Both the position numbers and the translations under genes were made by a program. The notes below the pieces were generated by a model. It searched no databases. It saw only the letters and a list, made by a program, of their open reading frames with translations, and had not been told where the DNA came from. DNA of 56,759 bases. It comes from a virus. Positions 1,431 through 13,646 of the stretch are shown piece by piece. Each line of letters begins with the position of its first letter. Position 1 is the stretch's first letter. The stretch spans positions 78,418-135,176 of the IMG/VR virus record IMGVR_UViG_3300016484_000735. The stretch is one strand, 5' to 3'.

Positions 1431-2012
1431 ATGAAGGTCGTGTACATTCATGGTCTGAACTCTTCAGATCGTAGCTTTGCGTACATCCTTCGGCAGCTTC
1501 CAGAACATGATGCAGTTCGTGTGAACTACAGGTCACACCAGCCGTTGAAAGATTCGATCGCCGAAGTTACACTCCAATTGCCTAAGAGGGGTCCGTTCGC
1601 GATCGTAGGGCACTCACTAGGCGGTGTGATCGGTTCGATCATCGCCACCGAACATCCGAAGGTCTCGAAGCTGATCACGATCAGCTCACCACTCGGCGGG
1701 TCGAAGGCGGCGAACATCCTCCAATGGTTGCCGAATCATCCGCCGTTGGTTCGTGACATCACCCCTCGCGCTCCGTACGTAGAACTTCTTCGTGAGTTCG
1801 AGTTCAAGATCCCGACGTTGAGCATCATCAGCACTGGCGGTTCGCTGCCAACGACGAACGAACCGAACGATTCTGTGGTGACCGTTGCAAGTCAGAAGTC
1901 GATGTTCCACGCTAAGAAGGTCGAAGTGAAAGCGAATCACTTCGAGGTCTTGGTTCACGATGACACGGTTGACCTTGTGAAGATCCACCTATTCGGAGAA
2001 GACAAAGAATGA
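1431..2012 (+). CDS. Alpha/beta hydrolase (lipase/esterase-like)
   Basis: IHGLNS oxyanion motif, GHSLGG nucleophile elbow, NDSVV acid, and ANHF histidine. Confidence 0.85.
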   Translation: MKVVYIHGLNSSDRSFAYILRQLPEHDAVRVNYRSHQPLKDSIAEVTLQLPKRGPFAIVGHSLGGVIGSIIATEHPKVSKLITISSPLGGSKAANILQWLPNHPPLVRDITPRAPYVELLREFEFKIPTLSIISTGGSLPTTNEPNDSVVTVASQKSMFHAKKVEVKANHFEVLVHDDTVDLVKIHLFGEDKE

Positions 2013-2653
2013 TCTACAGCTCGAGCCACAAGTACCATCAGGAAGCTCAGAACAGGCAACTGATGGATTACGCCCTCTGTCTTGATGACCCGAAGAAGTT
2101 CTCATCGCTCATGAAGATCAGCGGCACCCCGTTGGTGCTGAATTCAGAACAAGAGCAGATGATGGACGAGTACCACAAGTTCTCGCGAGTGATCTGCAAG
2201 CATCGGCGACGGGTAGGAGCTTCGACTGTTTCGGCTGTGTACGCGCTGTGGTTTGCTTTGATGAAGCCGCACAAGGTCGTGTCTCTGGTCGCCCCGTCAC
2301 ATGCGTGGGCGATGACCTATATCCAGCTGATCGCTGAGCTGTTCAAGTCGCTGCCGGCACACATGAAGCCGACTGTGGTTCGTAGCACGAAGCACACGAT
2401 CGAGTTCGACAACGGCTCGTCAATCTATGTCATTGCAGCAACCCCAAATGCGCTTCGCGGAATGACGATCGGTCTCCTGATCTTTGCCGACTTCGCGCAC
2501 GTCCCAGATGACGTCGCCGCTGAACTCCTGGCGGTCATCGGTCCGGCGATTGCGACCGGCACTTCGTTGGTGATGTTCTCGGATGACTCAGGAATCTCAT
2601 CAACATTCACAAGCCTCTGGAAGCACTCGCCGTATCATCGTCTCGAAGTATGA
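2009..2653 (+). CDS. Degenerate, truncated paralog of the large terminase ATPase domain
   Basis: Colinear with the N-half of the downstream TerL (LWFA, IEFDNGS, RGMTI), but Walker A GKT->GAS, Walker B DE->AD and STPNG->SDDSG; no nuclease domain. Confidence 0.75.
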   Translation: MIYSSSHKYHQEAQNRQLMDYALCLDDPKKFSSLMKISGTPLVLNSEQEQMMDEYHKFSRVICKHRRRVGASTVSAVYALWFALMKPHKVVSLVAPSHAWAMTYIQLIAELFKSLPAHMKPTVVRSTKHTIEFDNGSSIYVIAATPNALRGMTIGLLIFADFAHVPDDVAAELLAVIGPAIATGTSLVMFSDDSGISSTFTSLWKHSPYHRLEV

Positions 2654-4224
2654 AGAACCCACAACTGAAGCGTGCGCACTCCACGGATGAGTACACACCA
2701 GAGATGGTGATGGAACTCAAGAAGTGCATGGAAGATCCGGTGTACTTCATGCGGAACTATGTGAAGGTGCAGCACCCGAAGAAGGGTACGATCCCATTTG
2801 ATCTGTTCGAGTACCAAGAACGGTTCGTTCGGCACATGCAGGAGAACCGGTTCACGATCACGCTGCAACCTCGTCAGTGCGGCAAGACCGTGACCGCCGC
2901 TATGTACCTCCTGTGGTTCGCGTGCTTCAACCCAGACATGACGGTGCTGATCGCATCGAAGAACCAGAGCCACGCTCTTGAGATCGCATCACGGGTCCGG
3001 TTCGCATACGAAGAACTTCCGAACTGGCTGAAGCCTGGACTGAAGTACTACAACATGCACAAGATCGAACTCGACAACGGTTCGCGGATCATCTCTGAAG
3101 CCACGACCGAGAAGACCGGTCGTGGTCTCTCGATCTCGAAGATGTACCTCGACGAGTTGGCGTTCATCTCGCCGCGCGTTCAAGAACTGCTCTGGGCCTC
3201 GTTGGCTCCGACGCTCTCGACCGGCGGTTCCGCCATCATCTCCTCGACGCCGAACGGCGACACTGAGCTCTTTGCACAGCTCTGGCGTGGTGCGATGTCC
3301 GGTCTCGCAGCGAAGAAGAGCGACGAGGCTCAAGAAGAGCAGATCAACTTCGTCCCATTCCAAGTGAACTGGCGTGAGCATCCGGAGCGTGACGAGAAGT
3401 ACTGGCAGATGATGGTGAACATGCTGGGTCTGCTGAAGACCCGGCAAGAGGTCGGCTGCGAGTTCCTGTCTTCAGACGCGATGCTGCTGAGTTCGATGAA
3501 GCTTCAGCAGATCGTGGACAAAGATCCACTGTACGAAGACATGGGGTTCAAGTTCTGGGTTCCACAGGAGAACATCGGCGGATACGGAAAGCAGTACCTC
3601 GTCTCGTTGGATCCGGCAACTGGATCCGGGAACGACTTCACAGCGATCGAGGTGTTCGAGTTCCCGAGCCTGAAGCAGGTCGCCGAGTGGCGATCGAACG
3701 AGATCAAGATCCCGCTGCTGTACGCGAAGCTGAAGTGGATCCTGAACAAGCTCACTGAGATCAAGGGTCGTGGTCGGGCAGAGTGCCTCTGGACGTTCGA
3801 ACGGAACGGCGTTGGCGAGGCGATCGCTGCGCTGTACATGAACGATGAGAAGCAGCCAGAGTTCGCCGAACTGTACAGCGATGTTCCAGGAAAGTACGGC
3901 GTGTACACCTCTGGCAAGACGAAGATCCTCGCTTGCCTCCAGATGAAGTCATTGATCGAGAAGGTCTCGTCAGGGTTCCAACTGTACTCGAAGTCACTGC
4001 TGTTCGAACTGAAGAACTTCATCGCCAAGGGTGGTTCGTACGAGGCGAAGCAGGGCGCAACTGATGACTGTGTGATGGCGCTGGTTGGCATCACTCGTCT
4101 GATCAAGCGTCTAGCCGACTACGATGAGAACGCGTTCAAGGTTGTGAACGAATACGTTGATCCAGACTCAAACGAAGACCGGGATGACTTCGGAGGTGAC
4201 CCAGTACCATTTGCCGTCTTGTAA
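2650..4224 (+). CDS. terL: Terminase large subunit (T4 gp17-like)
   Basis: PRQCGKT Walker A, YLDELAF Walker B, SSTPNG, nuclease LDPATGSGND and DDCVMAL. Confidence 0.95.
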   Translation: MKNPQLKRAHSTDEYTPEMVMELKKCMEDPVYFMRNYVKVQHPKKGTIPFDLFEYQERFVRHMQENRFTITLQPRQCGKTVTAAMYLLWFACFNPDMTVLIASKNQSHALEIASRVRFAYEELPNWLKPGLKYYNMHKIELDNGSRIISEATTEKTGRGLSISKMYLDELAFISPRVQELLWASLAPTLSTGGSAIISSTPNGDTELFAQLWRGAMSGLAAKKSDEAQEEQINFVPFQVNWREHPERDEKYWQMMVNMLGLLKTRQEVGCEFLSSDAMLLSSMKLQQIVDKDPLYEDMGFKFWVPQENIGGYGKQYLVSLDPATGSGNDFTAIEVFEFPSLKQVAEWRSNEIKIPLLYAKLKWILNKLTEIKGRGRAECLWTFERNGVGEAIAALYMNDEKQPEFAELYSDVPGKYGVYTSGKTKILACLQMKSLIEKVSSGFQLYSKSLLFELKNFIAKGGSYEAKQGATDDCVMALVGITRLIKRLADYDENAFKVVNEYVDPDSNEDRDDFGGDPVPFAVL

Positions 4225-4283: not shown

Positions 4284-6770
4284 ATGCTTCAAGACGGTCT
4301 GCTTCTTGCCGATTCATCGGTTGCAGTGAACTTTCAGATTCAGAACGGGACGGCGTTGCCGAGCACCGGCCTGAACGTTGGCGAGCTGTTCTTCCTCACT
4401 GCCGGTACCTCAACAGAGATCGGCCTTTACGTGTTCGACGGGTCCTCCTGGATCCGTTCGACGAACACGATCTCCTCTTACACGCTCTCCGGCGACCTCG
4501 TCGGCACGATTGACGGCGGCACTGACGCGGTGTCACTGGCAACTGTGAATGGCACTGTCGGCACGTTCGGCGCTGCGAACAAGGCTGCTTCGTTCACTGT
4601 GAACGGCAAGGGCCTGATCACCGCAGCGGCAGAGGCCCCGATTGCGATTGCTGGCTCACAGATCACGTCTGGTGTGATCAGCGACGCTCAGATCTCTCAG
4701 ACGTCGGTGACACAGCACCAAGCGCACATCGCGATCGATGGCTCACAAGTGGTGTCTGGCTCGTTGCCGAATGCACGTATTTCATTTAACTCTGTCGCCC
4801 AACACCAGTCGTCGCTGTGGTTCGACGCGTCGCAGATCACCACCGGCACATTCGATGCTGCCCGCATTGGGCAGACCGGTGTAACACGTCACGAAGCCGC
4901 CCTGACGATCACTGAGAATCAGATCCCGAACTCGACGATCCTCGCTCGTGTCGCAGACAACGAGACGATCACCGGTTCCTGGACGTTCAACACCGGCGTC
5001 GTCGGTGCTACCCCGACTGCGGCATCGCACCTCGCTACGAAGCAGTACGTCGACAACGCAGTGAACGGCCTGTCGTGGAAGCACTCGGTGAAGGTCGGTA
5101 CTACGGCGAACATCACCCTGTCTGGCACGCAGACGATCGACGGTGTCGCAGTCGTTGCTGGGAACCGTGTCCTGGTCAAGGATCAAACGACAGCATCCGA
5201 GAACGGCGTGTACGTCGTGGCAGCTGGCGCTTGGGCACGTTCTACCGACTTCGACGAAGTGTCGCCGATCGACGAGATCAACAGCGCTGCTGTGTTCATT
5301 GAGCAAGGCGCGACGCAAGCTGACACTGGCTGGACTCAGACCGCTACCGTCACGACCGTTGGCTCGGACGCGATCTCGTTCACTCAGTTCTCGGCATCTG
5401 GCGCGTACGTTGGTGGCGCCGGTCTCACGCTGTCTGGGAACACGTTCAACGTTGGTACAGCGTCGGCATCGCGCATCGTCGTGAACGTCGACAACATCGA
5501 CCTCGCTACCGTCACTGATTCTGGCGCAGGTTCGTTCAAGAAGATCACCGTTGACGGGTACGGTCGTGTCACTGGCACCACCGCAGTCGTTGCTGCTGAC
5601 ATCACCGGCCTCTCGCCGTACGCTGCCGGCACTGGTCTCACTCTGACCTCTGGTACGTTCGCTCTCAGCACCCTCGCTGATGCTGGCGCTGGCTCGTTCC
5701 TGAAGATCACTCGTGACTCATACGGTCGTGTGTCTGGTACGACCGCAGTTGCAGCATCTGACATCCTCGGTCTCTCGCCGTACGCTGCTGGTACCGGCCT
5801 CACACTGGCATCTGGCACATTCTCGCTGAACACGCTGGCTGACTCTGGCGCCGGTTCGTTCCTGAAGATCACTCGTGACACGTACGGTCGTGTGTCTGGC
5901 ACTGCTGCCGTGACTACGGCTGACATCACCGCTCTCGTTGGCTCGACGTACGTTGACGTCGCCGGTGACACGATGTCAGGTGCCCTGACTGTGAACAGCA
6001 CGATCACCGCGTCTGGCGCCCTGTCCGCTGCATCGGTTGCTGTGACTAGCAACTCTGGTCCAGCGAACGGTCTGTTCCTGCCAGCAACGAACGCTCTCGG
6101 CATCACGACGAACAGCCTTGAGCGTGTTCGTGTTGACGCTTCTGGCAACGTTGGTGTTGGCACCACGAATCCGGGTTCGAAGCTGCATGTTGCCGGCGGC
6201 GGGATCGCCATTACTAACAGCGCATCAACGGCGTCCCAAACTGCTTACGCAGGGAATGGTACAACAGTCGGGACTTCTGATTTCGTAGTCGGAATGGACT
6301 CGGCGGGCACCGGCGTTCTGTATCAACGCGCCAACAGCCCGATCGTGATCTCGGTGAATGGCGCTGAACGTCTGCGCTTTGGTTCCGATGGTGCGAACTA
6401 CTTCACCGGCACCACGAACTTCAACGGTTCGATCATCGTTGGCACTCACATGTCGACCGGCGGCGGCAGCACCCCGGTGAACACTCTGACGACAACTGCG
6501 ATCGACACGTTCGCCGCAGCAACGTACCGTTCAGCGAAGTACTTCGTGCAGGTCACCGACCAGACGAACTCGCAGTACCACGTTGTCGAGATCTCTGTGA
6601 TGCACGACGGCACGAACGTGTACAAGGTCGAGTACGGTGAGATGACCTCGGCGGCGTCGCTCGGTACGTTCGACGCATCGCTGAGCTCTGGCACTGTCTC
6701 GCTGACGTTCACCGCATCCGCACTCTCTTCGAAGGCAGTGAAGTTCAGCCGAACTCTGATCGCAGTGTAA
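4284..6770 (+). CDS. Tail fibre / fibre-hub virion protein
   Basis: ATKQYVD, TLSGTQTIDGV..RVLVKDQT..ENGVY, ITVDGYGRVT repeats, ERVRVDASGNVG and a C-terminal DTF..YRSAKY domain, all typical of phage fibres. Late promoter at 4238. Confidence 0.85.
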   Translation: MLQDGLLLADSSVAVNFQIQNGTALPSTGLNVGELFFLTAGTSTEIGLYVFDGSSWIRSTNTISSYTLSGDLVGTIDGGTDAVSLATVNGTVGTFGAANKAASFTVNGKGLITAAAEAPIAIAGSQITSGVISDAQISQTSVTQHQAHIAIDGSQVVSGSLPNARISFNSVAQHQSSLWFDASQITTGTFDAARIGQTGVTRHEAALTITENQIPNSTILARVADNETITGSWTFNTGVVGATPTAASHLATKQYVDNAVNGLSWKHSVKVGTTANITLSGTQTIDGVAVVAGNRVLVKDQTTASENGVYVVAAGAWARSTDFDEVSPIDEINSAAVFIEQGATQADTGWTQTATVTTVGSDAISFTQFSASGAYVGGAGLTLSGNTFNVGTASASRIVVNVDNIDLATVTDSGAGSFKKITVDGYGRVTGTTAVVAADITGLSPYAAGTGLTLTSGTFALSTLADAGAGSFLKITRDSYGRVSGTTAVAASDILGLSPYAAGTGLTLASGTFSLNTLADSGAGSFLKITRDTYGRVSGTAAVTTADITALVGSTYVDVAGDTMSGALTVNSTITASGALSAASVAVTSNSGPANGLFLPATNALGITTNSLERVRVDASGNVGVGTTNPGSKLHVAGGGIAITNSASTASQTAYAGNGTTVGTSDFVVGMDSAGTGVLYQRANSPIVISVNGAERLRFGSDGANYFTGTTNFNGSIIVGTHMSTGGGSTPVNTLTTTAIDTFAAATYRSAKYFVQVTDQTNSQYHVVEISVMHDGTNVYKVEYGEMTSAASLGTFDASLSSGTVSLTFTASALSSKAVKFSRTLIAV
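5517..5930 (+). repeat. In-frame 162-bp (54-aa) tandem repeat, about 2.5 copies
   Basis: D-x-GAGSF units start at 5517, 5679 and 5841. Confidence 0.85.
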
Positions 6771-6778
6771 CAATTCTC

Positions 6779-6801
6779 GGGAGGCTTCGGCCTCCCCTTT
6801 T
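6779..6801 (+). terminator. Rho-independent terminator / attenuator hairpin
   Basis: GGGAGGC-TTCG-GCCTCCC followed by CTTTT. Confidence 0.8.
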
Positions 6802-6819
6802 GACGGATAGGGAAGTCAA

Positions 6820-9567
6820 ATGGCTAACAATGTGAACTTCAAGGTCAAGAACGGCCTTGTCATCGGGGGCGATGCGTACCTGAACAACGCTTCGTATCTC
6901 CACGGGAAGTTGCTGAACGGCACGGACACTCGGATGTTCGGCATTAACTCAGCGAACACCCTGTACATCGGATCGATCGACACCGCCACTGGCGGCGATT
7001 GGATCTTCATCAACGGCGCTGAGCGGATGCGGATCAATGCTGCTGGCACCGTCCGCATCAACACGGCGTCGAACCTGAACACAAACGCTCAGTTCAGTGT
7101 ATACGCTTCCGACCAGAAGGTCATGGAGCTGTACTCAGGCGGGTCGTTGACTCGTCTGATGCTAGCGAACGACAACAACCTGAACACAATCGATTCGAAC
7201 AACGGCGCGCTCACGTTCAACTACAATCCTGGCACGCTGACTGAAGCCGGTCGATTCACCGTCGGTGGCGCGTTCACGGTTGGTCGCACCTCACAGTACG
7301 CAACGTACGACATCGCTTCGTTCGAGAAGAGCGCGAATGCCGATTACGGTATCTCGATCAGCAACCAGAACTCGACGGCTGGCTCGTACGCCCGTCTGAC
7401 GCTTGGCGCGTACGGTGCTGACTGGAACCTGCGCGTTGGTGCCGCCGCAACGAACAACACGGCGTTCACGATTGGACGTGCGGCAGTCGAGATGCTGCGC
7501 ATCACCTCAGCTGGCAACGTTGGCATCGGGACCTCAAACCCAAGCGAGCAGCTGCATCTTGGGCGCGCCACGTACCCAACGCTGAAACTCGAAGAAACTA
7601 CGACCGGTAATGTGGTTCTTCTGCAGCACCATTCTGGCGCCAGCGAGACTCAACTGACGGTGGTTGGCGCGTACCCGCTTGTGTTCAAAACTTCCAACAT
7701 CGAGCGTCTGCGGATCTCGGCGGCAGGCAACGTTGGCATCAAGAATATTTCGCCGTCGCATACTGTTGACATCGGGCAATCAACAGATGCAACAAACGAA
7801 CTCTACGTGAATGCCGCAGCATCTGGTGTTGCCCGCGTGTATGCGAACACGTGGGGTACTTCGTCTGCAGCGCTCGTTGCGAACAACTCTTCAAGCGCAA
7901 CTGGCGACGGTGTTCCAGCGAACACATTGGGTATCGCTTTCAACGGCGGCCTCCCAGCAACGTTCGTTGTGAATGCTGTAGAGCGGATGCGCATTGACTC
8001 ATCGGGCAACGTCGGTGTTGGCATCACGCCGAAGACTTGGGGTAGCGACTACCGCGCCGTGGAACTTGGCACCTACGGCCGTCTGTACTCGTCGTCCAAT
8101 GGGAAGACCGGCTTCGCAGCTAATGCGACATTCAACGGCACGAACTGGATTGCTGGCATCACAACCGTAGGTTCGCTGTATGAACAGCCGTTGGACGGAA
8201 GTGGTCACGTCTTCTCCACAGCGGCCAGCACCACGGCCGGCGCGACGATGACGTTCACAGAGCGGATGCGCATCGACTCGTCTGGCAACGTCGGCATCGG
8301 GACGTCGGCACCGACTCGCGCGCTTCATGTTCGCGGCACAGCTGCAAGCGCATCCATCGAAAACACCAGCACTGCAGCTGGGGACTTTGTCGATCTTGCT
8401 ATTGTTGGCAATGACACTACCGGCCGATTCTCAGCATACGGATCTCAACACAGCTCACGAGCCAATCAAGTATGGTTGAATGCTAATACAAGTTCTTCGC
8501 TTGTACTTGGGACCAACAATACAGAGCGGGTGCGCATCACATCGGCTGGCGATGTTGGCATTGGCACTGGATCACCGCAACGGAAGCTCCACGTGGTCGG
8601 CGATGCCGGCATCGCCGTGTCTGATACCGCAACCGGTGCAATCACAACTCTTGCGGCGACAACTACCGTCACGTCGATTGATTGCTACACCACGAATGTT
8701 GCTGGTCAAGCCTTTGTGGTTCGCACGAACAGTACTGGTGGTACTGGTACAGCAGAGCGGTTCCGCATCACATCTACAGGTCAGATCGGTATCAACACCT
8801 CGCTGCCGTCATTTGACTTCGATCTGCAGAAATCACAGAATGCTGCATCGGTGATGCGCGTGTACAACGGGAACACCGGCGCTTCTGCATCCTCGGTGAT
8901 CGTTGCGCAGTCTGACACAGTGACGTTGAACATGTTCGCGAACGGTTCTGGGAACACTCTCGGATCGGTCGCATCGCTGGCTGGTATTCAGGTCACCACG
9001 AACACACCGTTCGGGATCTGGACGAACAACGCTGAACGCATTCGAATCACGGCTTCGTCTGGCTACATTGGCATCAACGGGAATACGAACGGTGTAGTTG
9101 CTGGGCTGCAACACCAACTGGCTCTGTATCACGCTGGTGCGAGCTCAGTGTACGGCATCGGCATCCGTGCGCTGAACAACTCGACGACCACACAGGCCCT
9201 GACGTTCGCGAACGCGTCTGATGCCCAGGTCGGTTGTGTCTCTGTCACCGCTTCGGCAACCACGTACTCGACGACTTCCGATCGCCGCCTGAAGGAGAAC
9301 GTCCAGCCGGCTGGATCGTTCGGTTCGAAGATCGATCAGATCGAGGTCGTCTCGTTTGATTGGAAGGCGGATGGGAAGCATCAAGAGGCCGGGTTCATCG
9401 CTCAAGACCTGTACAAGGTCGCTCCTGATGCTGTCCACGTCGGCGATGCTGATGACGTTGAGGTGCTGAAGCACACCTGGGGTGTCGATGCTTCGAAGCT
9501 CGTACCGATGCTGATCAAGGAAATCCAAGAGCTGCGTGCACGCGTCGCTGCCCTCGAAACCAAGTAA
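6820..9567 (+). CDS. Tail fibre with repeated ERMRI-x-SSGNVGIG modules and C-terminal intramolecular chaperone (peptidase S74-like)
   Basis: Many TERMRIDSSGNVGIG repeats; TSDRRLKEN..GFIAQD..LIKEIQEL at the C-terminus. Confidence 0.9.
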   Translation: MANNVNFKVKNGLVIGGDAYLNNASYLHGKLLNGTDTRMFGINSANTLYIGSIDTATGGDWIFINGAERMRINAAGTVRINTASNLNTNAQFSVYASDQKVMELYSGGSLTRLMLANDNNLNTIDSNNGALTFNYNPGTLTEAGRFTVGGAFTVGRTSQYATYDIASFEKSANADYGISISNQNSTAGSYARLTLGAYGADWNLRVGAAATNNTAFTIGRAAVEMLRITSAGNVGIGTSNPSEQLHLGRATYPTLKLEETTTGNVVLLQHHSGASETQLTVVGAYPLVFKTSNIERLRISAAGNVGIKNISPSHTVDIGQSTDATNELYVNAAASGVARVYANTWGTSSAALVANNSSSATGDGVPANTLGIAFNGGLPATFVVNAVERMRIDSSGNVGVGITPKTWGSDYRAVELGTYGRLYSSSNGKTGFAANATFNGTNWIAGITTVGSLYEQPLDGSGHVFSTAASTTAGATMTFTERMRIDSSGNVGIGTSAPTRALHVRGTAASASIENTSTAAGDFVDLAIVGNDTTGRFSAYGSQHSSRANQVWLNANTSSSLVLGTNNTERVRITSAGDVGIGTGSPQRKLHVVGDAGIAVSDTATGAITTLAATTTVTSIDCYTTNVAGQAFVVRTNSTGGTGTAERFRITSTGQIGINTSLPSFDFDLQKSQNAASVMRVYNGNTGASASSVIVAQSDTVTLNMFANGSGNTLGSVASLAGIQVTTNTPFGIWTNNAERIRITASSGYIGINGNTNGVVAGLQHQLALYHAGASSVYGIGIRALNNSTTTQALTFANASDAQVGCVSVTASATTYSTTSDRRLKENVQPAGSFGSKIDQIEVVSFDWKADGKHQEAGFIAQDLYKVAPDAVHVGDADDVEVLKHTWGVDASKLVPMLIKEIQELRARVAALETK

Positions 9568-9576
9568 GGAAACAAA

Positions 9577-11220
9577 ATGGCTACTAACAAGGACTTCAAG
9601 GTCTCACAAGGGAACATCGTTGGTAACGGGTTCCGTGCTGCACAAGGCGTACCGTCGAACGGCGACGGTTCTCTGAATGGGTACGCATTTGGGGTGGACG
9701 GCGACACTGGTCTGTTCTCGCCTGGCTCAGGTGGCGGGAACGGTGCCCTCGCATTCTTCACGAACAACACCGAACGCGTTCGCCTCACAGCCGGCGGCCA
9801 GTTCGGTATCGGTACTTCGGCACCGTCGCAGCTTCTGACCGTCGTTGGCACCACTCCGTACATCCGCCTGGAAGACGCGTCTGGAAGCGCGAAGCGTCTT
9901 GACCTGTCGGTCGACTCCACCGGTGTTGCGACGATCGCGGCGAACCAGTCGGCTCAGCAGCTCGTGTTCCAGACAGTTGGCGCTGAGCGGATGCGCATTG
10001 ACTCATCGGGCAACGTCGGTGTTGGTGCGGTCCCTGTAGCTGCGCTCAACGGTGTCCTGGTTCATCGCTCTTCTGGTACTGCGAACATTGTCGTGAACTC
10101 CACCGATGCGACGATGTACTCCAGCATCCGCCTGAACAACGGGAACGCAGCGCCAGCCGCGGTCGGCTGTGCTCTGCACCACATGGGTGCGTCGTACCCG
10201 GCAGGTTCTGAGTACGCTCCAGACGGCTCATCGCTTACCGGCTTCGGCAGTAACGGCTTGTTCCTGAACGCATGGCATTCAACCGGGACGGTAAAGATCA
10301 CCACGGCCAGCGTCGAACGGATGCGCATTGATTCGTCGGGTAACGTCGGTGTTGGCACGACAGCGCCAGGCGCAAAGCTTGACGTGAATGGGCAGCTTCG
10401 TGCCCCAACAGTGATTCTGGCACGGAACGATTCTGGCAATGAGGGCGGTGAGATCGTCTTCAACGAGCCGAATAACAACCTCCGAGCTTTTGCTCTTGAC
10501 TGCTACGGCGCGAACGTTCTGAATGGATCTCAAACGTCTTCATTCCGGTTGTTCTCGACGACAGCGGCAACTACCCCAGTGAGTACTGAGCTGCTTTCGG
10601 TGTCCATGGCTGGGCAGCTGAAGATGAAGGTTGGTCCGATCTCGGTGTACTCGCCGACCACTACTACCGTCGGCGGTATCATGGGCATCGAGAACGCTGC
10701 CGATACCTTCACCGTCGACACGAATAAGGTCCTGTCTCATTACGGCCTCACTTGGAAGAGTCTCTCAGACAACGCTGAACTCCAAGCGCATCTTTCGTCG
10801 TACGGTGGCCTGAACTTCTACGCGGCTGGTGCTCTGCGCCTCAAGGTCGAGACGAACGGCGCCGTCCGTCCTGGCACCACACAAGCACAGACACTTGGCT
10901 CTGCGGCGTACCGCTGGTCGACGATCTATTCTGACCAAGCGCTGAACGTTTCGTCGGATGAACGTCTGAAGCACGACATTCAAGACATCACCGAAGTTGA
11001 GGCTCGCGTTGCGACGCGTCTGAAGAGCCTCGTGAAGACGTATCGTCTGAATGTGGATCCTTCGAAGAAGCAAGTCGGTGTGATCGCGCAAGAGGTCGTG
11101 GCGGCATTCGCCGCCGAAGGCTTGGATGCTCTTGATTACTCAATCGTATCGATGGGCGAAGACGGAATGTACGCGGTCTGCTACGATCCGCTGATCATGT
11201 TCATGTTCTCTTCACTCTGA
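9577..11220 (+). CDS. Tail fibre with C-terminal S74-like chaperone
   Basis: ERMRIDSSGNVG repeats; SSDERLK..GVIAQEV. Confidence 0.9.
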   Translation: MATNKDFKVSQGNIVGNGFRAAQGVPSNGDGSLNGYAFGVDGDTGLFSPGSGGGNGALAFFTNNTERVRLTAGGQFGIGTSAPSQLLTVVGTTPYIRLEDASGSAKRLDLSVDSTGVATIAANQSAQQLVFQTVGAERMRIDSSGNVGVGAVPVAALNGVLVHRSSGTANIVVNSTDATMYSSIRLNNGNAAPAAVGCALHHMGASYPAGSEYAPDGSSLTGFGSNGLFLNAWHSTGTVKITTASVERMRIDSSGNVGVGTTAPGAKLDVNGQLRAPTVILARNDSGNEGGEIVFNEPNNNLRAFALDCYGANVLNGSQTSSFRLFSTTAATTPVSTELLSVSMAGQLKMKVGPISVYSPTTTTVGGIMGIENAADTFTVDTNKVLSHYGLTWKSLSDNAELQAHLSSYGGLNFYAAGALRLKVETNGAVRPGTTQAQTLGSAAYRWSTIYSDQALNVSSDERLKHDIQDITEVEARVATRLKSLVKTYRLNVDPSKKQVGVIAQEVVAAFAAEGLDALDYSIVSMGEDGMYAVCYDPLIMFMFSSL

Positions 11221-11234
11221 TTTAAGGGCACAAA

Positions 11235-13646
11235 ATGGCTACTAACAAGGACTTCAAGGTTTCACAAGGGAACATCGTTGGCAACGGGTTCCGTGCCGCA
11301 CAAGGAACACCGACGAACGCAGATCTGTCGCTGAACGGGTACGCGTTCGGTGGTGATGGCGATACGGGGATGTTCTCGCCGGGCTCTGGCGGGTCTAACG
11401 GTGTTCTCGCGTTCTTCACGAATAACACCGAACGTGTTCGACTCGCCGCCAACGGACAGCTCGGCATCGGTACATCGTCACCAGCGTACCCGCTGCACGT
11501 CGAAGGTGCAACTGTTGACGACGTCCTGCGAGTGAATGCTACGAACAACCCATCGATCTCGATCGCTCGTGGTGGTGTTCGACAGATGTACCTGCAAGCA
11601 ACTGCATCTGGTGCTGCGCTGAACGTCGAAACGGCAGTGCCGTTCGGGATCTTCACGAACAATCTCGAGCGGATGCGCATCGACGCTACTGGGAACATCG
11701 GGGTCGGTACATCAAACCCGCTCGCGGCTGTAGAACTGAACTCAGCGAACGTGGCTGGTGATGACAACCGTGGAAACCTGTACGTTCGTACGTCTACTGC
11801 GTATGCTGCTGACGTTGGCGGCAAGATCACGCTTGGCGGGTTCTACAACGGCGCGGCCCATTTCCCGTTCGCCGGTGTGTCTGGGCGCAAGGCGAATGCT
11901 ACGGCGAGCGATGTATCTGGGTACTTGCAGTTCTTGACGACGACCTCAGCTGGAGCTCTGACCGAACGGATGCGGATCGATGCGTCTGGGAACGTTGGCG
12001 TCGGCACTGCATCACCGGCTGCTCGCCTGCACATGCTGGTAGCCGACGGGGCGAGGGTCGACATTGCCAAGTTTGAACAGACCGGGCAAGGATCATTGAC
12101 TGTTCAGGGGCAGTGGGGTAATGCGGATCTTGGGACGAACGCCGGAACACTGCTGTATTCGGCTGGACCGTCGTACAACATCGGATTCCGGAACGGGACC
12201 AGCGGTGCAGCTAGCCTCGTTCTGAACAACGGGAATGTCGCGATCGCGCACTTCGAGAACGGTCTGCAGGCCCCAGCTCGTCTGTCCGTTCAGGAACACG
12301 CCACTGGATTCGCAGGCATCGGCGTTCGTAGCACACGCGCTGGCACTTCTGGATCTGCTCAGCGTGCTTACACGACGACAATCATTCAGGCTTCTGGTGC
12401 GAACTACAGCTACGATGGTTCTGTAGCCATCAAGTTCCATCACAACGATTTCCACAACCTCAGCGGCGACCTGTCATTCTGGACTAAGAACGAGTCTAAC
12501 ACTCAGTCTGAGCGGATGCGTATCACGGCGGCCGGATACGTCGGCATCGGCACCGCCTCGCCTGGGTACGCTCTCGACGTGAACGGGAACGGGCGGTTCT
12601 CGTCGTTCCTGTTCCTTGGGCGGAATGATAACTCGAATGAAGGCGGTCAGCTCGACTTCGCTGAGCCGAACAACAACTCGACGGCTTGGTCACTCGACGT
12701 GTACGGTGGCACGAATCCGGCCTTCCGGATCCTGGAGACCGTGAGCAGCGTCACGTCCGAACGGGTCCGTATCGTTGCCGGCGGGAAGATGGCGATCGGC
12801 GCAACAACCACGTACTCTGAACTCACAGTGAACAACGGCTCAGCATCTGGCTCGCTGTCTCTGTCGCCAGTGAGTGGTGGCGGTGGTGTGTCGTATATCC
12901 TGATGGGGAACGCCAACGGCGGTGGCGCGACTGGCCCAACTATGATCGCCTCGGCGAACCGTACGTTGCAGTTCGGCGTTGGTACTTCGTTCACGAGTCG
13001 TGATGGCGGCACGTTCACCGAGTTCATGCGCATCGACTCTGGCGGCAACGTCGGTATCGGCATTTCGGTCCCATCGGCTCGTCTGCATGTTGCCGGTGCA
13101 TCAGAAGCCATTCGGATGCAGCACGACAATGCATACATCAGCGGATACAACAGTGCGAACACAGTTCGAAACGGGTACTTGCAGTTCTCTGGCGCTGGCA
13201 CGACCTTGGCAGCTGATGCTGGTGGTTCGGCGAACCTGGTGTTTTCGACCAATAGCGCGAACCGCCTCATCATCGAAGTCGGTGGCGCCGTTCGTCCTGG
13301 TGCCACACAAGCTCAGACACTCGGTTCAGCAACATACCGGTGGTCGACGATCTACTCTGACCAAGCTCTGAACGTTTCGTCGGATGAGCGTCTGAAGGCA
13401 GACGTTCAAGACCTTACTGAAGCCGAGACCCGGGTGGCGAAGCGCTTGAAGGGTCTTGTGAAGACGTATCGTCTGCTCGCACGTCCAGACAAGAAGCGCA
13501 TCGGTGTGATCGCTCAAGAGGTCGTGGCGGCGTTCGAAGCCGAAGGTCTGGACGCTCTTGACTACGAGGTTGTCTCGATGGGTGAAGACGGGATGTACGC
13601 GGTTTGCTACGAACCGCTGACCTTGTTCATCGTCTCCGCGATGTAA
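11235..13646 (+). CDS. Tail fibre with C-terminal S74-like chaperone; paralog of 9577-11220
   Basis: Near-identical N-terminus (MATNKDFKVSQGNIVGNGFRAAQG) and C-terminal chaperone domain. Confidence 0.9.
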   Translation: MATNKDFKVSQGNIVGNGFRAAQGTPTNADLSLNGYAFGGDGDTGMFSPGSGGSNGVLAFFTNNTERVRLAANGQLGIGTSSPAYPLHVEGATVDDVLRVNATNNPSISIARGGVRQMYLQATASGAALNVETAVPFGIFTNNLERMRIDATGNIGVGTSNPLAAVELNSANVAGDDNRGNLYVRTSTAYAADVGGKITLGGFYNGAAHFPFAGVSGRKANATASDVSGYLQFLTTTSAGALTERMRIDASGNVGVGTASPAARLHMLVADGARVDIAKFEQTGQGSLTVQGQWGNADLGTNAGTLLYSAGPSYNIGFRNGTSGAASLVLNNGNVAIAHFENGLQAPARLSVQEHATGFAGIGVRSTRAGTSGSAQRAYTTTIIQASGANYSYDGSVAIKFHHNDFHNLSGDLSFWTKNESNTQSERMRITAAGYVGIGTASPGYALDVNGNGRFSSFLFLGRNDNSNEGGQLDFAEPNNNSTAWSLDVYGGTNPAFRILETVSSVTSERVRIVAGGKMAIGATTTYSELTVNNGSASGSLSLSPVSGGGGVSYILMGNANGGGATGPTMIASANRTLQFGVGTSFTSRDGGTFTEFMRIDSGGNVGIGISVPSARLHVAGASEAIRMQHDNAYISGYNSANTVRNGYLQFSGAGTTLAADAGGSANLVFSTNSANRLIIEVGGAVRPGATQAQTLGSATYRWSTIYSDQALNVSSDERLKADVQDLTEAETRVAKRLKGLVKTYRLLARPDKKRIGVIAQEVVAAFEAEGLDALDYEVVSMGEDGMYAVCYEPLTLFIVSAM

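Follow-up and report, generated by a model that had tools for sequence, protein, structure and literature searches.

Large terminases (TerL) are generally described as homomeric rings aided by an unrelated small subunit (TerS). In phage T4 the gene of this small subunit (gene 16; gp16, PF11053) precedes gene 17, whose product gp17 carries the N-terminal ATPase domain taken here as a reference (2O0H, 2O0J and 3CPE; Pfam Terminase_6N). Ring ATPases with non-catalytic subunits are known from another ATPase superfamily, where the clamp-loader delta-prime represents such a subunit retaining its arginine finger. The TerL ATPase domain is also recognized by host immunity: on its own it activates EcAvs2 and Upx, and a bridging ATP allows EcAvs2 to read the ATP-Mg site (PMC13601566). 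T4 itself encodes vs.8 (219 aa), a stand-alone TerL-ATPase-like protein which has the fold of the terminase ATPase, is devoid of a nuclease domain and reportedly triggers EcAvs2 (PMC13601566). As for the small subunit of larger genomes, it is present in its classical form in group 2 jumbo phages according to Iyer et al. (PMC7824862).

The closest counterparts of the gene considered below are found in cultured phages, namely XaC1_353, Xoosp13_242, Hallingskeid CDS0387 and 121Q gp3. They share with it the position, a modest length (227–252 aa), overlap with terL or close abutment to it and the loss of both Walker A lysine and catalytic glutamate, RQxG being kept, but are only 20–30% identical to the protein described here. 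Searches of a literature library returned no published function for any of the four and no paper describing lysine-less TerL paralogs, and a comparative paper on jumbo phages makes no mention of such a TerL paralog. Here, we addressed a gene of this kind in the window, i.e., the whole stretch of DNA under analysis, which makes up the final 56.8 kb of an IMG/VR virus record of 135 kb with CheckV completeness of 43%. Contigs related to this record reach 349,660 bp at 97% completeness, which identifies the source of the window as a jumbo phage, uncultured and with a terminase of the T4 type.

The TerL-like gene and its coupled neighbors

The gene occupies positions 2009–2653 of the window (+ strand), its reading frame is intact and its product comprises 214 aa. 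In BLASTP, residues 18–205 align with residues 20–213 of the adjacent TerL (85.9 bits, E = 7e-24, 28% identity), and the protein passes Pfam Terminase_6N (PF03237; 30 bits against the cut-off of 22, E = 5e-7) and matches phrog_5989 “terminase large subunit” (E = 2e-25). The preliminary description had proposed an alignment along the TerL ATPase domain, and every motif pair quoted there is present in ours. The model built by AlphaFold2 from an alignment of 49 related proteins (pLDDT 94.9, pTM 0.90) has the ATPase domain of T4 gp17 (2O0J) as its top Foldseek match (TMq 0.86, rmsd 1.7 Å); further TerL ATPase domains come next, among them the TerL chain of 8DGC, the complex of Avs3 with TerL. The protein is thus predicted to adopt the same ASCE/RecA-like fold as the gp17 N-domain. 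A profile built from 49 lysine-less paralogs, in turn, finds T4 gp17 with E = 1.7e-62.

The homology ends together with the protein. Its C-terminus corresponds approximately to TerL residue 225, just past the strand that matches TerL residues ~217–225, leaving out the helical end portion of the ATPase domain (which ends at ~270), the linker and the whole nuclease domain; the Pfam scan gave no match in the paralog to Terminase_6C or to an RNase H-like nuclease domain, in line with the earlier statement that the gene stops before the nuclease. By sequence and predicted fold, the product is thus a paralog of the TerL ATPase domain without the catalytic features defining a working terminase, and since these are absent, the annotation “large terminase” is not appropriate for it.

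The bona fide TerL is encoded immediately downstream (2650–4224, + strand; 524 aa) and, according to Pfam, PHROG and alignment, has Walker A GKT, Walker B LDE, the C-motif SSTPNG and the nuclease domain, with matches to Terminase_6N (E = 8e-14), Terminase_6C and phrog_36964 (E = 1e-73). These two are the only TerL-like genes in the record. The coupled run begins with an alpha/beta-hydrolase gene (1431–2012, + strand; Pfam Abhydrolase_6 and Abhydrolase_1 above the cut-off), whose stop codon shares the ATGA at 2009–2012 with the start codon of the paralog, and the TGA stop of the latter shares a second ATGA (2650–2653, + strand) with the start of TerL. Both overlaps, and with them the translational coupling directly 5′ of terL, had been noted in the preliminary description and are borne out by the coordinates. 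A Shine-Dalgarno-like GGAGAAG (1995–2001, + strand) is located 10 nt 5′ of the paralog ATG, while the ATG of TerL has no clear Shine-Dalgarno sequence upstream, only GAAG. A scan for promoters and terminators across hydrolase, paralog and terL revealed nothing convincing between the three coupled genes.

Several features of the surroundings are worth recording in their own right. The hydrolase is found at the same place in most relatives (32–59% identity), coupled to the terminase module, and is an odd partner for packaging genes. Positions 86–475 encode a DUF5856 protein with homologs 5′ of the terminase module in several relatives. Four large fibre-like genes follow in a row 3′ of terL (4284–13646), and three of them (6820–9567, 9577–11220 and 11235–13646) each end in a Peptidase_S74 intramolecular chaperone domain.

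The position of the gene immediately 5′ of terL raises the question of whether its product might be a TerL-derived replacement of the small terminase, recognizing phage DNA and starting the packaging. The paralog does sit where T4 has gene 16, as the preliminary description had pointed out, and the record of Xoosp13_242 carries the annotation “terminase small subunit”. T4-type PF11053 and Terminase_2 (PF03592) were not found in five genomes, including the window record, the 97%-complete relative and the complete XaC1 and Xoo-sp13, although this absence is weak since TerS families are many and diverse. The likeness to T4 gp16 is that of gene position; the proteins have no sequence or fold relationship, the Pfam scan of the paralog detected neither a DNA-binding domain nor a match to any small-terminase family, the PHROG scan assigned it to no TerS family either, and a classical small subunit is said to be present in group 2 jumbo phages (PMC7824862). 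Given also that the gene is dispensable in close relatives (see below), which argues against an essential small-terminase role, we consider such a replacement highly improbable.

Residues lost and residues kept

In the window protein, the P-loop is degenerate: RRRVGAST (residues 66–73; 2204–2227, + strand) aligns with PRQCGKT of TerL, Arg67 and Gly70 being kept and the Walker A lysine substituted by Ala71. The segment from R150-G151, which corresponds to the arginine-finger position, to the Walker B remnant LLIFAD (residues 156–161) spans 2456–2491 (+ strand), and alignment of LIFADF with MYLDEL of TerL places Ala160 at the Walker B aspartate and Asp161 at the catalytic glutamate. The C-motif, SST/STP in TerL, is reduced to S191-D192-D193 (2579–2587, + strand). 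The designation as a pseudo-ATPase paralog of TerL, put forward in the preliminary description, is therefore well founded: the homology is clear, and Walker A lysine and catalytic glutamate are lost.

The same loss is common to all 11 paralogs of the window clade, XaC1_353 and Xoosp13_242, and the position of the Walker A lysine in the 11 clade members is taken by A, I, M, F, T or L, the relatives in the clade keeping PRQxG. Conservation of the remaining positions can be judged from the alignment of 49 lysine-less paralogs, whose members were picked for lysine absence, so that the count at this position is circular while all others are free to vary. The lysine is replaced there mostly by I, M, L, V or T. 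Glutamate at the catalytic position (D161 in the window protein) occurs in 2/49 and aspartate at the Walker B position (A160) in 31/49. Much better kept are the glutamine of the Q-motif (Q48; 44/49), arginine and glycine of the P-loop (R67, 48/49; G70, 49/49), serine or threonine after the lysine position (S72; 48/49) and the C-motif serine (S191; 47/49). The finger position (R150) has arginine in 35 and lysine in 7 of the 49 sequences, i.e., Arg or Lys in 42, and the next glycine (G151) is present in 47. The R150 column aligns with R139 of P74-26 TerL, a finger acting in trans, the identity of which is evident from the pair of wild-type chain 4ZNI (LRG) and R139A mutant chain 4ZNJ (LAG).

Compared with the T4 gp17 N-domain and the window TerL, the paralog thus retains the fold, clear sequence homology, the Q-motif, Arg, Gly and Thr of the P-loop and an arginine where P74-26 has R139, but the window copy is devoid of the Walker A lysine, the catalytic glutamate and the C-motif. 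It also lacks ~45 residues at the end of the ATPase domain as well as linker and nuclease domain, and it evolves several times faster than TerL. The lysine-less family has thus lost the residues serving its own catalysis and kept the arginine acting on a neighbor together with much of the old pocket lining. It is this combination that makes its members similar to the clamp-loader delta-prime, which has an inactive nucleotide site of its own but preserves the residue acting on the site of its neighbor; the latter belongs, however, to another ATPase superfamily, and for the paralog, known here from sequence and predicted fold, heteromeric assembly is hypothetical.

Distribution, divergence and repeated loss

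A scan of viral contigs with the window TerL yielded 24 loci with TerLs 42–80% identical to it. An intact TerL-N-like gene lies between hydrolase and terL in L003, L004, L005, L007 (identical to L019), L008, L011, L013, L018, L021 and L026, as established by tblastn and ORF maps, which means that a lysine-less, glutamate-less paralog is present in the same slot at 10/18 related jumbo-phage terL loci. The paralogs of these ten relatives comprise 249–296 aa, overlap terL by 4 nt in eight cases and are always located directly 5′ of it. Beyond this clade, XaC1_353 of the Xanthomonas jumbo phage XaC1 (annotated “large terminase protein”, P-loop FRQAGTTT) and Xoosp13_242 of the Xanthomonas phage Xoo-sp13 (P-loop YRESGTSY) both adjoin terL, Erwinia phage Hallingskeid CDS0387 (“hypothetical protein”) is a weaker yet significant relative by alignment, and coliphage 121Q gp3 (“hypothetical protein”) fits by position and motifs alone, its BLAST homology being not significant. 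BFVD contains further short entries similar to TerL, which belong to phages CBB, Atu_ph07 and fHe-Yen9-04.

In an exhaustive search of 1.84 billion cluster representatives, the 150 best matches were classified. Short (median 260 aa) and lysine-less proteins account for 45 of these 150, and 42 of the 45 have no Asp-Glu pair either; 67 are full-length and have the lysine, and longer lysine-less proteins (345 aa or more) number only six, two of them having just 359 and 372 aa. Within the terminase ATPase family, the lysine-less paralogs form a branch of pseudo-enzymes, and the window protein fits its features, i.e., an ATPase-only size of ~215–320 aa, the lack of Walker A lysine and catalytic glutamate and the position 5′ of terL with an overlap, keeping R67 and R150 as well. 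Three of the representatives (P0102, P0108 and P0118; 535–553 aa) are full-length and TerL-like with no Walker A lysine and the Walker B Asp-Glu kept, and may be second terminases or sequence variants. T4 vs.8 was considered as a member and rejected, since the hmmsearch with the family profile was not significant and its Walker motifs are intact.

For the window protein itself, a single close homolog was found. The word-based protein search returned only P0002, encoded on a 1.5-kb contig and 88% identical; the scan of viral contigs with the window paralog as a query gave no match, and the metagenome scan with the two-sequence alignment of the paralog and P0002 detected no relative. L032, the sole match to a degenerate DNA pattern for the DNA of P0002, is unrelated and was discarded as a chance match. 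P0002 and the window paralog are of equal length, have the same C-terminal sequence and differ mostly by chemically similar residues, and the short form is therefore a stable variant rather than an accident of one genome. It is at the same time the most derived one, with a C-terminus ~45 aa shorter, both C-motif and Walker B aspartate lost and a very long branch.

Divergence of the paralogs is much faster than that of the neighboring terL. In genome pairs whose TerL N-domains are 73–93% identical, the paralogs share 22–62% identity, and for the window and L003 the respective values are 85% and 32%. The dN/dS ratio of the paralog is 0.12 for L004/L005 and 0.31–0.37 for L003 versus L004/L005, compared with 0.08–0.12 for TerL and 0.09–0.12 for the hydrolase. 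Thus, the paralog evolves several times faster than TerL, yet purifying selection holds in the L003/L004/L005 pairs. In the maximum-likelihood tree, one branch (support 77/82; found in 79% of bootstrap trees) separates the paralogs of the window clade, XaC1, Xoo-sp13 and Hallingskeid from TerLs, and the branches of the paralogs are 10–30 times longer than those of TerLs. This topology fits one old duplication, with the reservation that long branches may attract each other. For all lysine-less forms taken together a single global origin is not shown, since on the FastTree tree of 179 sequences the lysine-less state, being strongly clustered, changes 14 times, and at least six of these changes are forced by well-supported branches. 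The paralogs of L018 (5932–6717) and L021 (2047–2847) are strongly supported sisters (100/99), while their TerLs belong to different clades, and this discordance suggests exchange of terL or of the paralog between phages.

A possible source of such genes is seen in the behavior of terL itself, for which a split at codon ~270 is frequent in this clade, i.e., at the ATPase/nuclease boundary (L023:1–2524; L024/L025:5995–8973; L026:6675–11047). The ORFs inserted there encode an HNH_3 + NUMOD3 endonuclease and DUF7487/REase-like proteins, and the C-terminal piece of TerL begins with weak intein/Hint matches. The lysine-less paralogs of the relatives end at TerL codon ~270, exactly where terL is split, so the origin of the paralog from terL split at this codon by endonuclease- or intein-like inserts is possible. 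Two further peculiarities of the terL region were noted: an acidic insertion of ~27 aa immediately following the Walker A helix of TerL in L007/L019 (6001–7641) and a NUMOD3-repeat protein, probably a homing endonuclease, which in L010 (4916–6001) is placed directly 5′ of terL, in the slot taken by hydrolase and paralog in other relatives.

The paralog is absent from 8/18 related terL loci, one of them in a 251-kb record, and a relocated second copy is not seen in these partial records, where the family profile matched only TerL. When mapped on the TerL tree, its presence and absence require at least six gains or losses among 19 genomes and are no more clustered than shuffled labels. A deletion scar is preserved in L022 (5968–6045): the terL frame starts with MKIISKRGREL, equal to the paralog N-terminus of L021/L011, and passes directly into VKNPQLKR of the TerL N-terminus. 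Therefore, the paralog was lost repeatedly and TerL works without it. A similar scar is possible in L014 (5962–6040) and L015, where ~11–13 paralog-like codons are followed by the TerL N-terminus. The preliminary description had regarded absence or frameshifting in close relatives as an argument against its proposal, and the outcome is twofold: the gene is intact in the 88% homolog and in the clade of L003–L005, L007 and L008, and it is missing at the eight loci just mentioned. Since it is intact in the nearest relatives yet dispensed with elsewhere, the paralog appears to be functional but dispensable.

Frequent losses, taken together with the truncation of the window copy and its higher number of missing motifs compared with the relatives, may give the impression of a decaying, functionless duplicate, for instance, of the N-terminal half remaining from a terL that was split or duplicated in part, its frame staying open solely for the delivery of ribosomes to terL. 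The coincidence of the split point with the end of the relatives’ paralogs and the lack of a clear Shine-Dalgarno sequence of TerL’s own are also compatible with this. What speaks for a maintained protein is that all 11 copies and those of cultured phages are intact ORFs despite divergence to 22–38% identity, that dN/dS stays at 0.12–0.37 in the L003/L004/L005 pairs, that specific motif positions are kept in 85–100% of 49 divergent members, that the structure is predicted with pLDDT as high as 94.9 and that P0002 preserves both the length and the exact C-terminus. Decay is accordingly the explanation to which we attach the least credence.

A probable partner of TerL or a possible immune decoy

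The reading we tentatively prefer, while granting it somewhat less than an even chance, is that the paralog, itself non-catalytic and dispensable, serves TerL as a partner or regulator via the old subunit interface. A non-catalytic copy of the TerL ATPase core would be produced together with TerL from the coupled gene run. From the lost motifs it is predicted to be incapable of ATP hydrolysis, and since the P-loop lysine is replaced by a small or hydrophobic residue, its binding of ATP is probably poor. Its mode of action would be binding, and the most likely target is TerL, contacted where the subunits of the packaging ring meet. The kept arginine corresponds to the one that in TerL rings reaches into the active site of a neighbor, and it is because of this residue that pairing with TerL is proposed, the paralog serving as an accessory regulator, e.g., capping or pre-organizing TerL or tuning its ATPase before assembly of the motor. 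Being an ancient duplicate, it may be useful, not essential and easily lost. Both binding to TerL and an effect on the motor are what we infer from coupling to terL across very distant phages, conserved finger and pocket residues, the well-folded core and purifying selection. Dispensability and fast divergence point the other way, as a partner of conserved TerL might itself be expected to be conserved.

Fast divergence, patchy loss and retention, and purifying selection form, on the other hand, a pattern typical of genes involved in conflicts. One may thus suppose that the dead copy interferes with host sensors of the TerL ATPase domain (Avs1-3, Upx), either soaking them up untriggered or covering the ATP-loaded active-site face of TerL. 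Since EcAvs2 reads the ATP-Mg site, a copy devoid of lysine and glutamate could plausibly bind this sensor without activating it, and the match of the paralog model to the TerL chain of 8DGC is in accord with the decoy reading. T4 vs.8, an ATPase-only TerL-like protein with intact Walker motifs, is toxic with EcAvs2 (PMC13601566). vs.8 differs from the paralog in that it keeps Walker A GKS and Walker B IIDE and that its gene belongs to a block of early genes, distant from gene 17. The paralog gene, by contrast, belongs to the late packaging module, coupled to terL, and not to an early accessory block, and nothing was found tying it to any defence system. Besides, having lost the ATP site, the paralog no longer offers the epitope which Avs2 reads, so that mimicry would be poor, and under a pure decoy function the conserved arginine finger is left without reason. 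Immune interference of this kind is in our opinion unlikely, though it is the main rival of the TerL-binding reading.

The conserved arginine finger together with the strict linkage to terL favors the TerL-binding role, and a regulator, an inactive motor subunit and an immune decoy, all three suggested in the preliminary description, cannot be separated by sequence. They may even coincide. In this distinctly improbable version, packaging enzymes of a large group of jumbo phages are heteromeric, and the dead paralog docks by its arginine-finger face on the ATP site of TerL, gating the ATPase until assembly and hiding the ATP-loaded epitope from Avs-type sensors; if true, one gene would be a motor regulator and an immune shield at once.

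In public records, genes of this family go under “large terminase”, “small terminase” and “hypothetical protein” alike, labels that need correcting. The presence of the same gene in cultured phages (XaC1, Xoo-sp13 and probably the Rak2-like group) turns its role into a question that can be addressed at the bench. A dead copy of TerL maintained by selection and supplied with an arginine acting in trans would suggest that the packaging motors of jumbo phages are heteromeric or regulated by a paralog; alternatively, the family would point to a new way of handling host sensors of the terminase ATPase domain.
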